Source: a virus (Duplodnaviria > Heunggongvirae > Uroviricota > Caudoviricetes). Taken from it: a DNA stretch of 34,983 bases. The position numbers and the translations under genes were made by a program. The DNA is taken from the IMG/VR virus record IMGVR_UViG_3300045988_118832; one strand, given 5' to 3'. Positions within the stretch are counted from its first letter, which is position 1. Each line of letters begins with the position of its first letter. Shown in pieces: positions 29,013-34,983 of the stretch. A model generated the notes under the pieces. That model was not told the DNA's origin. It saw nothing but the letters and a program-made list of their open reading frames with translations, and did no database searches.

Positions 29013-29252
29013 TCATTGCCATACGACGGTACAGCCGTCGATACAGGACGTTTTAACCACGCGGCGCAGGCCGCTGAATGTCTGAACGATTTCCGTTACC
29101 GGCCATACAGGACCACCCACAGGCGGGCAGGCATAAACCACAGGTAAACGGTGATGCTGCCCCGTTACGCGACCGCCAGTGGTATGGATAGCCACACGGG
29201 CACGGGAACGGACGGCATTAATGGCCTGCTTTTCCATCATTTTGTTCTCCAT
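29013..29252 (-). CDS. Hypothetical early protein (79 aa)
   Basis: ATG overlaps the stop of the MuB-like gene (TGATG-type coupling). Confidence 0.4.
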   Translation of the reverse strand: MENKMMEKQAINAVRSRARVAIHTTGGRVTGQHHRLPVVYACPPVGGPVWPVTEIVQTFSGLRRVVKTSCIDGCTVVWQ

Positions 29253-30145
29253 CAGTGAATTAACATTTCTGCGAATTTATCTATGGCCTGCACACTGACC
29301 GGCGCATCGCTGATATCGCAAATCCGGTACACACCGCGCGCCAGTTTGAACAGGCGGCGGGCATTACCCAGCGAGCGCGCGTAAAGCGCCTCGCTGATTT
29401 CCGGTTCTGCTGCTTCCGGCATCAGCCCGGTGGCTATCTGGTTAAAATCTTCCTGCGCCAGCGTGTCGCCCAGGTTAAGCGCCAGCGCCACGCGGCTGTA
29501 TAACTGCGCAAATTCACCACGACGCCCCTTGAGATTAATCAGAAGACGAGGCATACCCGCCAGGACAACCCCGATACCAGCTTTATCATGCAGACGGCGC
29601 AGAACCTCCAGTGCGCGATAGGGGAGCAGTTCAGCTTCGTCCACCATCAGCAGACGACCGGAATCACGCAGTTCGCGCACACAGGCATCAATCAGTTCGT
29701 GAATGTTGCCGCGAACCTTTACCCCCAGCTGGCGGCACAACTCCTCAAGCAGTGTCCTGGCTGTATAGCCCGGGTCAGCCTCAATCAGGACCGCATCCCG
29801 GTTTCTGGCGGCGTATTCACGCAGAATCATTGTTTTGCCAAGGCCAGCTGCGCCATACAGCACACAGATTTCACATTCCAGGTGAGCGTAGGCCAGCACC
29901 TCCAGTCCTTTGGCAGCCATACCAGTGGTCACAAACTTTGCTTTAATACGGCGGCTGTTTTCCTTTTCCCGCTCACGGGTCACAAAGGCAGAAATGCGTT
30001 CTTCAATATCAGCCATATCGCCCTGATATTTACCCTGCAAATACTGGTTGATAACGGCGCTGCTACGACCAATTGCACGGGCGACGTGGGTCTGCGTATA
30101 GCCGCGACGGGCCATTACGTCATTTAATTGCGTAATTAAACTCAT
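29252..30145 (-). CDS. MuB-like transposition ATPase / target DNA activator
   Basis: 297 aa; N-terminal HTH-like region then Walker A-like LYGAAGLGKT and Walker B-like LLMVDEAE; directly downstream of the transposase. Confidence 0.85.
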   Translation of the reverse strand: MSLITQLNDVMARRGYTQTHVARAIGRSSAVINQYLQGKYQGDMADIEERISAFVTREREKENSRRIKAKFVTTGMAAKGLEVLAYAHLECEICVLYGAAGLGKTMILREYAARNRDAVLIEADPGYTARTLLEELCRQLGVKVRGNIHELIDACVRELRDSGRLLMVDEAELLPYRALEVLRRLHDKAGIGVVLAGMPRLLINLKGRRGEFAQLYSRVALALNLGDTLAQEDFNQIATGLMPEAAEPEISEALYARSLGNARRLFKLARGVYRICDISDAPVSVQAIDKFAEMLIH

Positions 30146-30163
30146 AATTAAATACCTTTTAAA

Positions 30164-32206
30164 TTAACGGTTGTTTGTGCCGTTTTTCTTTAAATTGCGC
30201 TCGCGTTCAGATGCGAATAAATAAAGTTCTTCTTTTTCCTTTTTCTCCGGGCGCTCCAGACCAAATCCAAAATTAAACTCAGATTTCTGCGTAATAGCCG
30301 GGGTAAGCTCGCGTTTCGCCTCTTCGATTTTCTGCGTGGCCCGTGCAATGCGGCCTCTGGCGCGTTTCTCCTGCTGCTGTTCGATAACAGCTTTCGGGAA
30401 CGCATCAACCTTATTACCGTTCCAGATGGCATCGCAGATATAAGAACCGTCCATCCGCCTGACAATCACGCTGTTTGCGTCGTGAATGTCGTAACAAACC
30501 CTGACTTCATTTCCGTGCTCTGCTGCCAGTTCTGTTGAGAAATAGATGTTTCTGAATAACACCACTTCACCGCGTCGCACCGTGCAGATGCTTTCCGGTC
30601 GGAACATTTCATGCAGTTCTTCCGGCGACAGCATGTCGATTTCAGCTTTCTGCTCCTTTATCAGTTTCCGGCGATACGCTGCCGGGCTGTAATGTTCACC
30701 ATCCTCTTTGCGGGGAAGGCTGCTGTGTGGCCGGTTGTTATACCGTTTCACCTCCAGCTCTATTGCGGCCATCAGTTGCTCAAAGGTGGGAACTTCTCCC
30801 ATAGCCTGAACCTGCCGCTTTGTCAGCTCTTTCCCTTTGTGGGTGGCCTTAATTGCTGACTGTGTGATGCGTTGCTGCATCATCACCGTTTCCTTGTCTG
30901 CATTTTTTGAGCAGTACGTCTGGAAACTCAGAGCCACATCTTTGGGTATTCCTTTGTTTGCTCGTTCTATTACCCCGCGCCCCTGCGGGTTACCAGGTAT
31001 CCCCGTGTGATGCTCCACACCCAGTCGGGGCAGAATCCCGGTAATATCGGCATCAAGTACCTGGTTTTTTTCACCACCCCCGTTATCGGAGTAATAAATC
31101 AGCGGTATCCCGTGTTGTGACATGCCATGACGCAATGCATCAGCAACGGCCACTACGTTCTCCGACAGGGACAGCGACCAGCCCACAATAAAGCGTTGCC
31201 CTGCATCCATAACCAGTGTCACTTCTGGCCGGAATGTATTCCCGGTGGCAGGGCTGAATGCCATCAGTTTCATACAGTGACCATCCCCGACCCATACCGC
31301 ATTAACCGGTAATGTGCTCCAGTCGCGCCGCACAAAGGGATTGAGCGAACGCCAGGCTGAACCGGTGGAGCGGAAACGCTCTTTAACAATCACCGGGACG
31401 CTGCTTAACACCCGTCTTACTGCGTGAACTGAAGGCAGTGCCGCCAGGATTCCCGCATCGTTCGCGTGTTTTTCATGCCACCAGGCTGAAAACTCGCGAT
31501 ACGCATATTCAATGGTCGGGCGCTTCCATGAGCGATAGAACATAAAGAAATCGCTCAACCACCAGACCTGCTCCCACGGTGTTCCCTTATGATGACCGGG
31601 AGCCAGTAACGCCAGTAACTGATTGGCATCACCGCGCGCCATCAGCCAGGTGGAATACCATTCCTGTAAACATCCCCAGCTGACGCCAGTTCGCTTACCC
31701 TGTCTGGCGTTGGCAGTACCTGCGGCCTCGATAATACGCTCGGGCAATGCCATCTGACGAATACCATCAACGATGTGTTTTACTGCTGCCGTCCTGGACA
31801 TTCCGGCGTATTCACGCAGTTTATGCACTTCGGTAGCCAGCAATATCCGCGCATCAGCGATGGCCTTTTGCTTGTCGGTCAGTGCCTGAACTTCGCGTAA
31901 TGCCAGCTCCGGGCATTTGACCATCACTTCCAGTTCATCGCGAACGGCGACGTTTTTAACTGCCTTCTGCTCAACCACGGCGGGCAGTTGTGCATCTTCC
32001 AGGACCTGATGAGTCAGGCGCTTACGTAAAACTTTCTGCGCTTCAGCGGGTAGGCAGTCGATGTGATACTCGAATGCTTTGGTACCTTCACGCTTGCGCC
32101 TTAATTCAGGTTTATTTTCAATTACACGATCTAGACGCGCCCTGACATTGTGTTCACGTGTTGGTAGCCCTCCAATGCCAGCACACTCTTTTGCTGTAAT
32201 CCACAT
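30164..32206 (-). CDS. MuA-like DDE transposase
   Basis: 680 aa; N-terminus MWITAKECAGIGGLPT... parallels Mu A (M.W...KECA..GLP); position after the ner-like gene. Confidence 0.9.
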   Translation of the reverse strand: MWITAKECAGIGGLPTREHNVRARLDRVIENKPELRRKREGTKAFEYHIDCLPAEAQKVLRKRLTHQVLEDAQLPAVVEQKAVKNVAVRDELEVMVKCPELALREVQALTDKQKAIADARILLATEVHKLREYAGMSRTAAVKHIVDGIRQMALPERIIEAAGTANARQGKRTGVSWGCLQEWYSTWLMARGDANQLLALLAPGHHKGTPWEQVWWLSDFFMFYRSWKRPTIEYAYREFSAWWHEKHANDAGILAALPSVHAVRRVLSSVPVIVKERFRSTGSAWRSLNPFVRRDWSTLPVNAVWVGDGHCMKLMAFSPATGNTFRPEVTLVMDAGQRFIVGWSLSLSENVVAVADALRHGMSQHGIPLIYYSDNGGGEKNQVLDADITGILPRLGVEHHTGIPGNPQGRGVIERANKGIPKDVALSFQTYCSKNADKETVMMQQRITQSAIKATHKGKELTKRQVQAMGEVPTFEQLMAAIELEVKRYNNRPHSSLPRKEDGEHYSPAAYRRKLIKEQKAEIDMLSPEELHEMFRPESICTVRRGEVVLFRNIYFSTELAAEHGNEVRVCYDIHDANSVIVRRMDGSYICDAIWNGNKVDAFPKAVIEQQQEKRARGRIARATQKIEEAKRELTPAITQKSEFNFGFGLERPEKKEKEELYLFASERERNLKKNGTNNR

Positions 32207-32214
32207 AACACCAC

Positions 32215-32487
32215 CTATGCAGCGTTGCTATGCGGATTTTTATTCCGATAACGTGATGGCCAGATAACTTCCGGTTCCACACCAATCGCTTCTGCAATTG
32301 CTGATTCATATGCAGGTACGCGGCGATAAAACACGTTACGCATTGCTCCAGGTTTTAAGCCGCGTACACGCTCCATCGTAGTGATATCAACCCCTTTATT
32401 ATCAAGGGCGGCTGCAATTGCTTTGCTAGACCAGTCTTGTCCGCGACGAACAAACAAGTCAGTTAGATCTTGTCTCGATAACTGCAT
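32215..32487 (-). CDS. Ner-like DNA-binding protein
   Basis: 90 aa; C-terminal EPEVIWPSRY matches Mu Ner/Nlp (KPEVIWPSRY). GGAGAGGA upstream of the ATG. Confidence 0.8.
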   Translation of the reverse strand: MQLSRQDLTDLFVRRGQDWSSKAIAAALDNKGVDITTMERVRGLKPGAMRNVFYRRVPAYESAIAEAIGVEPEVIWPSRYRNKNPHSNAA

Positions 32488-32505
32488 TGTGTGATCCTCT
32501 CCAAT

Positions 32506-32611
32506 TTATCGATTCAGATAATCAAAAGCATTTATCTGATGCGATAAATCCTAGATAAACAAAAATCCGCTGTCAACGGATTTTTGTATTTGTTTAAGCG
32601 GATTTTTGTAC
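32506..32611. promoter_or_regulatory. Immunity-region operator cluster between the repressor and ner-like genes
   Basis: TTATC-N6-GATAA (32506-32521), ATTTATC-N6-GATAAAT (32530-32549), AAAAATCCG-N7-CGGATTTTT (32561-32585), extra GCGGATTTTTGTA (32599-32611). Confidence 0.5.
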
Positions 32612-32625
32612 ATCGTGGGTTCTAT

Positions 32626-33303
32626 ATGAAAAACTCTTTAAAAAGAAATGGTTACGCAGATAAAACCGCAAGCAAGCAAACCGAGAAAGAACGGATTATT
32701 GAGGCTATGGATATAATCCGCTTCGGTGAGCGCCTTAAATCAGCTATGGAAGACAGCGGATTAAATTACATGGCACTGTCAAAACTGAGTGGGTTGTCTG
32801 AAGCCACAATACGAAAATACGTGCATGGAAAGATCTATCCAGGTATAGACAGCGCAGCTTTGGTGGCTCACGCATGCAATGTTCCTGTGGAGTGGTTGAT
32901 ATCAGGAAAATCCGTCATTGAAAACAATAATCCGCAACAAAGTCCGACCGAAAGAACAGAATTAAACCTCCTGTTACAGCGCATGAATACTCAAGATTTA
33001 GATGCTTTGCTTGATGTTTTTTACAACATCGGTATCAAAGGAGTCCTAAAACGCCTACAACAACCCACCAGGCAAGCTAAGCAGGCCTGCAACGACCTAG
33101 ACGAACAGGAGAATGCCATCAGAAGCCTGAACATCAGGGAATCGCTTAAAGACGCTATGTGTATGGCTCTGGATGGAAATGAAGAAACTGACAAAGAGAT
33201 TTTGCGACGCATCGAATCTCGTGCACGGACTGGGTCGCCAGGTGGTGAGACCATTGCCACGCCGGAGCAAGAAACGAAACCTGTAAGCAAAAAACCAGCA
33301 TGA
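32626..33303 (+). CDS. Prophage repressor, HTH XRE/cI-type
   Basis: Divergent from the ner-like gene. ORF track starts at a TTG (32584); ATG at 32626 preferred. HTH-like LNYMALSKLSGLSEATIRKYVHG. Confidence 0.7.
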   Translation: MKNSLKRNGYADKTASKQTEKERIIEAMDIIRFGERLKSAMEDSGLNYMALSKLSGLSEATIRKYVHGKIYPGIDSAALVAHACNVPVEWLISGKSVIENNNPQQSPTERTELNLLLQRMNTQDLDALLDVFYNIGIKGVLKRLQQPTRQAKQACNDLDEQENAIRSLNIRESLKDAMCMALDGNEETDKEILRRIESRARTGSPGGETIATPEQETKPVSKKPA

Positions 33304-33454
33304 ACGCCTACTACTTGGTAGGCGTATGCTGCCAACTAACTAGCGACATCCAACAAAACCAATACCGACGACAGATAAGAAAGGGATAAATCAAGCAAGA
33401 TTAAAACGGGTTTTAAAATCTTTTAAAAGGCGATCGCTTTCCTGCACCGCCGGA

Positions 33455-33596
33455 TCAAAACAGTCCAGAATAAAGCGTAAAAAAAGGCATTTTTGGTCAT
33501 TTTCTTCAAAACGATCCAGAATCGGCGAAATCTCTCACATCCCGCACCACTCAAGGCTCGCAGGCTCATCTGGTCTGCTCGTACTCAGTCCAGAAT
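33455..33596. repeat. Three direct copies of ATTCTGGA (minus-strand sense): candidate transposase end-binding sites
   Basis: TCCAGAAT at 33464-33471, 33515-33522, 33589-33596; two copies share ATTCTGGAyyGTTTTGA. Located after the repressor gene where Mu has L1-L3. Confidence 0.4.
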
Positions 33597-34618
33597 TGAT
33601 CACTACCCCACATAATGCCTGACAAAACACAACCAGAAGGTGCTCGAAACGTCCAGCTGTGCTCGTTCCCGCCCGGGTTGTAAAACACCTCACTGGTATA
33701 CTGAAAATTCTGTACGCCACCTGTTTTGGTCTGGTAGCGGGCATCGAAGTTTCCGTAGTCTGACGGTATAACCTGACGCCCGCATCGCCAGTTTCCCGCA
33801 TCATCCATATACGCCTGACCGTCCGTACCATTATCCGTACGGCTATTATTTATCATGTAAATGCCAAACTGCTTATTCCCAAGACCAGCCAGGAAATACT
33901 TTCTGTCTGCATGATCCTGACGCAGAAGCGCCTGAGCAGCATCAGTATTTATCCTGTTTTTCCCGAAAATAACGTTGTTGTCACGCATCTGAATCCACGT
34001 TCCGTTACTGCTGTTAATCGCAAAACGGCCTGCAAATACATCTTCTGTAACATCCAGACCGTGTCCCATAGTTATGCGACCGGTCCTGAGATTAAGCGTA
34101 AAGGGGCGTAGCGGCCCAATATCACCACTCTCGCCCTGATTTTCCCGGGTAGGAATGAGGTGCAGACACTCTTCCGAACGACGAAAAATCAGACCAAAGG
34201 CTTCGTTGAAAATCCTCAGTGCATTAACACCACGGATTTTCAGCTCCCCGGTCATGGTGTCTCCATCACGCTGAACGGCATTTTTTGCCTTATCCACCGT
34301 GGGTTTTAATCCGAGGTTTTCAACAGCCTCATCACTGTCTTCGACATCCGAAAGATTATTTTTTATCAGCAATGCCTCTTCGTTAATTGCACCGCCCACC
34401 AGTAATAATATGGCTTTATATAACTGGTCGTGTTCCTCTTTATTCAGTTCTATCCCGGCCTTCTCAATGACACCACAGATTTCCTCCTGAAGGGCATCCC
34501 ACATGGCACTGTTCAGCCAGGTGGCATGACGCCCTGTACGAATATTCCCGTCAGTAAATCCGTTCTTGCCCGGGCCAAATTTATCTTTAACTGCTGTCGG
34601 AGTGTCAATTCTGTGCAT
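33566..34618 (-). CDS. Tail fibre protein (350 aa), outside or at the edge of the Mu-like element
   Basis: ATG with GGGAGG upstream; N-terminus MHRIDTPTAVKDKFGPGKNGFTDGN... and GDTMTGEL motif are typical of fibres; C-terminal YTSEVFYNPGGNEHSWTFRAPSG matches the left-edge fibre. Confidence 0.7.
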   Translation of the reverse strand: MHRIDTPTAVKDKFGPGKNGFTDGNIRTGRHATWLNSAMWDALQEEICGVIEKAGIELNKEEHDQLYKAILLLVGGAINEEALLIKNNLSDVEDSDEAVENLGLKPTVDKAKNAVQRDGDTMTGELKIRGVNALRIFNEAFGLIFRRSEECLHLIPTRENQGESGDIGPLRPFTLNLRTGRITMGHGLDVTEDVFAGRFAINSSNGTWIQMRDNNVIFGKNRINTDAAQALLRQDHADRKYFLAGLGNKQFGIYMINNSRTDNGTDGQAYMDDAGNWRCGRQVIPSDYGNFDARYQTKTGGVQNFQYTSEVFYNPGGNEHSWTFRAPSGCVLSGIMWGSDQFWTEYEQTR

Positions 34619-34648
34619 ATTAAACCTCCCGTGAATGAAATATCAGAA

Positions 34649-34983
34649 TTATGTCCTTGCCTGATTAAACAATTCCGCTGTGAAAGTCAGTTCACCCTTT
34701 GTGAAAGGCGTTTCTCCGCCTGGCTGGGCCATAAAACTCTGTGAGACAGTCGTCCAGCTGTTTGTGTCGCTTTGTACGCCATTCTCTGTAATCGTTGCAC
34801 CTGCATGGCTGCCATTTTTCACTTTCCAGGCCAGGCGGTTATTGGGGGCATCAGCACCGCGGTAAGTGACCGAGGCCATAACAGCCACAACATCACTGTT
34901 GCTGTTATCCACCGCACCAAACGTGGCCTGTGCTGCATTCAGGGAGGGCGAGAGCATCAGATATCCGGCCTCGCTGGCAGAGG
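34649..34983 (-). CDS. C-terminal part of a tail/fibre-associated protein; 5' end beyond window
   Basis: Frame stays open upstream of the track's Met to the window end (...SASEAGYLMLSPSLNAAQ...); stop at 34649, 30 nt before the fibre gene start. Confidence 0.4.
   Translation of the reverse strand, partial: SASEAGYLMLSPSLNAAQATFGAVDNSNSDVVAVMASVTYRGADAPNNRLAWKVKNGSHAGATITENGVQSDTNSWTTVSQSFMAQPGGETPFTKGELTFTAELFNQART

Follow-up and report, generated by a model that had tools for sequence, protein, structure and literature searches.

The stretch of DNA studied here, called the window throughout, is 34,983 nucleotides long and is a metagenome contig (MEGAHIT-style; from sample ENA ERZ27229629). 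A Mu-like prophage fills it from position 1 to 33612, the right end of this element lying beyond the window start, and what follows belongs to a second, resident prophage. The features around the boundary between the two, together with the early genes of the Mu-like element, are:

29252-32487, minus strand: transposition and early module of the element (B-like, A-type and ner-like genes; Pfam)
29252-30145, minus strand: B-like AAA+ ATPase, 297 aa (Pfam AAA_22 and TniB, weak; AAA family ATPase in sibling prophages)
30164-32206, minus strand: A-type DDE transposase, 680 aa (Pfam Mu-transpos_C, HTH_Tnp_Mu_1 and rve)
32215-32487, minus strand: ner-like HTH protein (HTH_35), diverging from the repressor
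32584-33303, plus strand: repressor (c-type, HTH; Pfam HTH_3; phrog_3037 transcriptional repressor, E = 4e-64)
33304-33612, no strand: non-coding left end of the element (attL-like), 309 nt, with the terminal dinucleotide CA at 33611-33612 (six-way alignment)
33455-33471, minus strand: third repeat (L3-like), TTCTGGA 143-149 nt from the terminus, same orientation
33506-33522, minus strand: second repeat (L2-like), TTCTGGA 92-98 nt from the terminus, orientation as in the L1-like repeat
33586-33596, minus strand: end-proximal repeat (L1-like), core ATTCTGGA, 17-24 nt from the terminus in element orientation
33566-34618, minus strand: chimeric ORF, 350 aa (element part 33566-33612, resident part 33613-34618)
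33613-33616, no strand: predicted copy of a 4-bp target duplication, TAAT (from 8 of 8 relatives and the intact target ...CCTGAACATTAATGCCTGAC...)
34649-34983, minus strand: 3' part of the resident phrog_8291 gene, upstream of the fibre gene and running off the window

Copies of the element at other sites are called siblings here. Several E. coli chromosomes and a 249-kb plasmid carry near-identical prophages (99.9%); those of JNE21-009, 48956 and the AF34/AF60 plasmid are 99.9% identical over 25 kb. A more distant relative is found in eutC of EPEC E2348/69. All these named prophages have the same termini, repeats and 4-bp duplications, and their sites differ. No named close relative was found when a phage collection was searched with megablast, which returned only a 173-bp match.

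Several features characterise the element as Mu-like. The transposase matches PF09299 with 57.5 bits (cutoff 21.7) and PF02316 with 32.9 bits (cutoff 23.3), the rve match being below its cutoff, and a gene for a B-type AAA+ ATPase lies directly downstream of it. The termini are TG...CA, with several repeats, putative binding sites, inside each end. Many unrelated insertion sites are occupied, as left ends were found in 61 genomes, and a short target-site duplication is present in 8 of 8 relatives, the window itself showing one side only. The marks of Mu in the strict sense (phage Mu / D108 type), that is a 5-bp duplication and a transposase close to MuA, are absent. The element thus has the general features of Mu-like transposable phages and is not a close relative of Mu.

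The repressor gene is transcribed towards the left end of the element, and in sibling copies it is annotated from the ATG at 32626 (225 aa). Between its stop (33303) and the stop of the 350-aa ORF (33566) there are 262 bp (33304-33565), coordinates that the original prediction had given correctly. The same prediction let the repeats, and with them the end of the element, extend to 33596. Comparison with copies at eight other sites shows instead that the element runs 16 nt past the last repeat, so that its left end is at 33612, with the terminal sequence ...CCCCACA. In a single alignment of the window and five sibling insertions, located in a prophage baseplate gene, an RHS gene, a plasmid methyltransferase gene, tkt and chbG, similarity is lost in all six directly after ...GATCACTACCCCACA. 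Three more distant relatives (STEC308, M8 and E2348/69) have an end identical in position to that of the window. Further, in complete E. coli genomes the Mu-like copies match the window up to 33612-33614, and the fibre gene matches it from 33610. We place the left end at 33612 because siblings and relatives all diverge exactly there. The right end of the siblings begins with TGTAACTTCGCG, i.e. with TG, which gives the element its TG...CA termini. An Rfam search of 32000-34983 returned no RNA family. In a scan for promoters and terminators the junction region did not exceed chance, and the repressor gene is not followed by a predicted terminator.

The octamer TCCAGAAT occurs at 33464-33471, 33515-33522 and 33589-33596, the third copy being inside the last codons of the ORF. 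In the whole window there are five copies where 0.79 are expected, and five or more were seen in 0 of 100 shuffles. The repeats are in fact longer than 8 nt, reading CAGTCCAGAAT and TCAAAAC(A/G)(G/A)TCCAGAAT, and in the six-way alignment their cores are invariant in element copies that have differing neighbouring bases. Counted inwards from each terminus, with sibling copies supplying the right end, the TTCTGGA core of the L1-like repeat lies at 18-24 nt on the left. On the right the core is found at 18-24 and 40-46 nt in one orientation and at 69-75 nt inverted, and both termini have TTCTGGACTGA in the same register. The left end carries its three repeats in direct orientation, the right end two direct and one inverted. 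Since the same motif occurs in the same register at the sibling right end, the three left-end repeats are plausible, though putative, transposase-binding sites. This agrees with the earlier impression that they look like transposase end sites, and the layout is that expected for the A-protein binding sites of a Mu-type element. In phage Mu the L1-L3 and R1-R3 sites have much the same arrangement.

The 350-aa ORF is a tail fibre (phrog_6859, E = 2e-155) composed of two parts. The resident fibre gene supplies codons 1-335 together with the first base of codon 336. The junction runs through codon 336, with A on the resident side and TG on the element side, and the rest of it, codons 337-350 and the stop make up the terminal 47 nt of the element. 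Residues 336-350 are thus read from the element as MWGSDQFWTEYEQTR, after which the frame ends at TGA, and the C-terminal residues of the fibre are prophage-derived, just as had been proposed. The chimera ends ...SGI-MWGSDQFWTEYEQTR and the intact protein ...SGI-NVQDTGRNSADNIGGVYYKQAQIYINGAWRSVSG.

The gene had also been described as complete. It has a start and a stop, yet as a gene it is incomplete: the chimera matches the phrog_6859 profile at positions 1-312 of 346, while intact orthologues match at 1-344. It lacks a full-length match with the conserved C-terminal module, and is a shortened member of the family; the phrog_1833 and phrog_12846 matches, which represent C-terminal fibre modules, are lost. 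Homologues with no more than about 70% identity in the rest of the protein still have the last 34 residues, which the chimera lacks, in conserved form. An orthologue that is uninterrupted and has the C-terminus of the chimera (...SGIMWGSDQFWTEYEQTR) would have spoken against an insertion. A search of 5.8 billion proteins (E <= 1e-20) gave 1913 homologues, and among the best-scoring 120 listed, coverage of the chimera was never above 96%. From the conservation of the lost residues we infer that the truncated fibre would be non-functional. Pfam has no match for the fibre or for the upstream protein, and an AlphaFold2 model of the intact fibre (mean pLDDT 33) was unusable.

The sequence to the right of the junction, 33613-34983, has 99.85% nucleotide identity to the fibre and phrog_8291 genes of a prophage in AST19. 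That strain has an intact fibre gene of 369 aa with a tail-fibre assembly gene behind it. In 36 complete E. coli genomes, the similarity of intact orthologues to the window begins at 33610/33613 and covers only the part to the right; these orthologues continue for 34 more codons with the family-conserved C-terminus, and then comes the fibre-assembly gene. Both these conserved residues and the assembly gene are missing from the window side of the insertion. With orthologues that are uninterrupted and element copies that end at 33612, the proposal that the element entered the fibre gene of a resident prophage, at its 3' end, is supported. A further tail-related ORF had been placed upstream of the fibre. 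An ORF does lie there, but its link to the tail is one of position: it belongs to phrog_8291, a family of unknown function whose member is 349 aa long in the reference strains.

In AST19 the resident prophage lies between yccA and tRNA-Ser/hyaA, and the fibre module closes it. It carries a tyrosine integrase, lambdoid early, replication and antitermination genes, a P27-type small terminase and an HK97-type head. Its tail is of the contractile Mu type, with a DNA circularization protein, baseplate V, gp46, gp47 and YmfQ. Judged by such near-identical reference genomes, as only 1371 bp of the target are within the window, the resident is an integrating lambdoid prophage and not a second transposable element. 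The YmfQ-like baseplate gene is already truncated or a pseudogene in three reference strains that we saw, and for this reason the resident phage may have been defective before the insertion.

Taken together, we are confident that the Mu-like element inserted by transposition at codon 336 of the 369-codon fibre gene of a lambdoid resident. Such an insertion is an ordinary outcome of Mu-type transposition. In the mechanism that we propose, the A-type transposase, with help from the adjacent B-like ATPase, would bind the ATTCTGGA-containing repeats, three on the left and three on the right. The transposase would then cut beside the terminal CA, and the ends would be joined to target strands 4 bp apart, here at TAAT. 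The reading frame extends 47 nt into the left end and gains the 15 element-encoded residues before the TGA. The last 34 residues and the fibre-assembly gene would be displaced beyond an insert of roughly 37 kb. The far junction is predicted to read ...CCTGAACATTAAT joined to TGTAACTTCGCG, with ...GGCCAGTATCCTGAACATTAAT joined to TGTAACTTCGCGTTTTTTTCTGGACTG... as the predicted right-end junction, and to carry the 100-nt remnant of the fibre gene, next to the fibre-assembly gene. We infer the binding of the repeats by the transposase, the duplication of TAAT at this site and the fibre remnant at the far junction.

An insertion in this fibre gene was seen in 0 of 5426 complete E. coli genomes, and no genome among them joins both parts. 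Searches of complete E. coli genomes, JGI metagenomes and GTDB species genomes did not recover the other junction, and a pattern search of the latter two collections for either junction sequence gave no match. A look-up of the chimeric protein matched ENA contigs of the source type alone, which stop inside repeats. Both ends of the contig lie within sequence common to the two prophages, the last gene of the siblings also being phrog_8291 with 97% nucleotide identity to the copy in the resident. It is because of this common sequence that the assembly stops and the far junction is missing.

With a MEGAHIT-style metagenome contig, it has to be considered that the end of a Mu-like phage was misjoined to an unrelated prophage fragment during assembly, and the contig ends show that repeats between the prophages did shape the assembly. 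However, at the junction no repeat is common to both sides, and the break coincides to the base with the terminal CA, which is defined independently in complete genomes. Further, a second contig bears the identical junction, with two mismatches near its end. An assembly artefact is therefore highly improbable. The metagenome could also contain DNA from virions, and in Mu-type phages both ends of the packaged genome carry flanking host DNA, so the 1.37 kb to the right of 33612 might be host DNA packaged by a Mu-type headful mechanism and not a stable junction. At the repressor (left) end of Mu this flank is only about 50-150 bp, compared with 1371 bp here. Lytic flanks are also heterogeneous and would not assemble into a single unique sequence, while the flank seen here is common to two contigs. 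We give packaged DNA hardly any credence as the source of this sequence.

The target could in principle itself be a transposable Mu-like element, nested or in tandem with the first, as the original prediction allowed. The Mu-type tail module of the resident, and the 97% identity of its phrog_8291 gene to the last gene of the Mu-like siblings, are what one would expect in that case. However, in the two reference genomes studied in detail the fibre module stands behind the same baseplate genes, which are not Mu-like. AST19 has the whole prophage next to a tRNA-Ser, with tyrosine integrase, lambdoid genes and HK97-type head, and there is no second transposase in it. As only the tail module of this integrase-bearing target is of Mu type, nested or tandem Mu-like elements are unsupported and, in our view, very unlikely. 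The reading that we prefer remains transposition of one Mu-like element into a lambdoid prophage.

For the site in the window a 5-bp target duplication had been anticipated, but this lineage makes 4 bp. In 8 of 8 independent related insertions a perfect direct repeat of 4 bp abuts both termini: TTCG in JNE21-009, AGGG in 48956, GACA in the AF34/AF60 plasmid, ATAT in AH19B041, AGCG in RM9088, TATG in STEC308, CATT in M8 and AGTG in E2348/69. Extension of the repeat to a fifth base fails on both sides in six of these insertions. In the other two, RM9088 and E2348/69, the repeat is followed by a T, and because this equals the first base of the element a 5-bp repeat is possible there. For the JNE21-009 insertion AST19 provides the empty site, in which exactly TTCG is the sequence that became duplicated. 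The 4-bp duplication pattern in the lineage is well supported.

In the literature, the target duplication is 5 bp in Mu and 6 bp in B3 and Leptospira prophages (review PMC8705779). We found no statement in the literature about a 4-bp duplication in transposable phages, nor any descriptive statement about the ends of Sp18, SuMu, SfMu, KS10 or the E2348/69 prophage. For the E. coli lineage, including the eutC prophage of EPEC E2348/69, we consider the case evenly balanced that target joining is staggered by 4 bp and not by the described 5 or 6 bp. It is uncertain that the 4-bp length is undescribed, and likewise that it originates in the stagger of strand transfer rather than in repair. Apart from the 4-bp duplication, nothing here deviates from what textbooks lead one to expect.

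The left ends in the 61 genomes adjoin RHS, tkt, chbG, eutC, phnJ, yfcC, prophage genes and others. In JNE21-009 the element is inserted in the same type of resident prophage as in the window. In UMNF18 it interrupts a P2-type fibre gene, where the truncated ORF likewise reads into the left end, and in one further strain the insertion is in a capsid gene. In total, structural genes of prophages make up 4 of about 35 distinct sites. A preference for such genes of resident prophages is unlikely, as this number is not clearly above the share that prophages have in such genomes; near-random insertion and survival in dispensable DNA are sufficient to explain the sites in prophage genes. We also considered if Sp18 of O157 Sakai belongs to the same lineage and set this aside. 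There is no O157:H7 record among the 60 listed of the 61 left-end matches, and the Sp18 end would for that reason not be similar at an identity of at least 65-70%.

In general there is a clear resemblance between the element and phage Mu. At the left end the repressor gene and a ner-like gene are divergent, and A, B, GemA, Mor and Mu-type head and tail genes are present. Both have 5'-TG...CA-3' termini and mutually unrelated insertion sites. Each end carries three repeats of the transposase type, the first of them close to the terminus; at the left end the other two follow after a spacer. However, a few differences can be observed. The transposase of the element bears only a remote similarity to MuA (phmmer, PDB 4fcy: E = 4e-4, alignment of about 80 residues), and no invertible fibre segment or invertase is found at the right ends of the siblings. 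The consensus of the Mu repeat differs from that of the element, ATTCTGGAC. Further, the duplication is 4 bp in the relatives of the element, against 5 bp in Mu (PMC8705779).

Mu-type phages are absent among the top tblastn matches of the transposase. The nearest transposases of sequenced phages include those of VW-6B (Pseudomonas), Kp4866-3 (Klebsiella), vB_YpM_Tongde (Yersinia), vB_MhM_3927AP2 (Mannheimia) and SuMu (Haemophilus), with 41-49% amino-acid identity over more than 89% of the protein. These five phages share the Mu-like organisation and are without nucleotide-level similarity to the element; neither ends nor duplication length are reported in the SuMu paper. Nesting of one phage in another has precedents in LC727895.1 and LC727881.1, which are annotated as Mu-like phages inside Stx-converting prophages. 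Their transposase belongs to a different lineage (44% identity), and they occupy another host prophage at another site.

In the insertion described here, the disruption of one prophage by another can be followed to the exact base. The resident fibre is deprived of its conserved tip and parted from the gene of its assembly chaperone, which probably disables adsorption of the particle. Gene-calling programs will list the 350-aa chimera as an ordinary fibre protein, and the lesson for annotation is that ORFs reading into the ends of transposable phages seem complete when they are not. Further, 4-bp scars would improve the automatic delimitation of prophages, which now searches for scars of 5 or 6 bp. 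The consistency of the 4-bp duplication is also relevant to the geometry of DDE transposases: if true, a 4-bp stagger would imply a different spacing of the active sites in a transpososome of the MuA family.

The insertions of this Mu-like lineage are flanked by short target-site duplications. When both ends of related prophages were compared, perfect 4-bp direct repeats were found to flank all eight independent insertions (records L003/L008, L004/L009, L005/L012, L006/L013, L007/L014, L015, L016 and L018), among them the eutC prophage of EPEC E2348/69, and the 4-bp duplication is confirmed by one empty site. Transposable phages have been described as generating repeats of 5 or 6 bp, whereas the repeat here is 4 bp. 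At the left end of the element in the window, the duplication is predicted to occupy positions 33613-33616. The left end itself is non-coding; it holds a palindrome, AAGGCGATCGCTTT, at window 33427-33440, and several GATC sites.

Among the relatives, one insertion concerns a tail-fibre gene and another the same type of resident prophage. The first is that of a related Mu-like prophage in E. coli UMNF18 (L017 5504-5857). It lies within a P2-type tail-fibre gene, directly downstream of the gpI gene, and the truncated fibre ORF of 117 aa likewise runs 77 nt into the Mu-like left end, so that there is, besides the window's, another fibre chimera of this sort. The second is that of a Mu-like copy, 99.9% identical, in E. 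coli JNE21-009 (L003 9114; L008 6534), which has hit this kind of resident prophage independently; it sits where the DNA-circularization and baseplate-assembly genes meet, roughly 5 kb away from the fibre gene.

The two types of prophage have a gene in common. The phrog_8291 protein (349-351 aa, function unknown) is found in two genomic places, one for each prophage type:

Window 34649-34983, minus strand, and L001 7041-8090 (record of the resident prophage): resident copy, upstream of the fibre gene
L008 6642-7697 (record of a Mu-like sibling): last gene, at the right end

Over 1041 bp the resident and sibling copies are 96.9% identical in nucleotides. This shared repeat is probably what caused the contig to end where it does, and it could also mediate recombination between the resident and Mu-like prophages. 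A second contig, ENA k119_13349 (34921 bp; L010), has two mismatches to the window, at window positions 34837 and 34917, both near the contig end and within the stretch that the two prophages share; the differences probably reflect mixing of the two phrog_8291 copies during assembly.

Among the Mu-like relatives, what lies between the fibre-assembly gene and the right end is not constant: some have phrog_8291, while others encode there a DUF4376 protein and a long one labelled "prophage tail fiber N-terminal domain". The pattern points to a second fibre cassette at the right end that can be exchanged. The variable right-end regions compared are:

L013 1940-4918
L014 3134-5412
L015 and L016, right-end regions

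All three reference strains carry, in the resident prophage, a YmfQ-like baseplate gene that the annotation marks as a truncated pseudogene, with a gap of about 400 bp between it and the phrog_8291 gene:

L001 8489-9073
L002 8489-9073
L003 12178-12762

The resident phage may already have been defective, or the fibre module may have been gained through recombination.

Finally, 249-kb plasmids from two clinical isolates from the UK (NZ_OZ547097.1 and NZ_OZ547049.1; L005, L012) have this Mu-like phage, at 99.9% identity, inserted in a methyltransferase gene; a transposable prophage is thus carried by a large plasmid.
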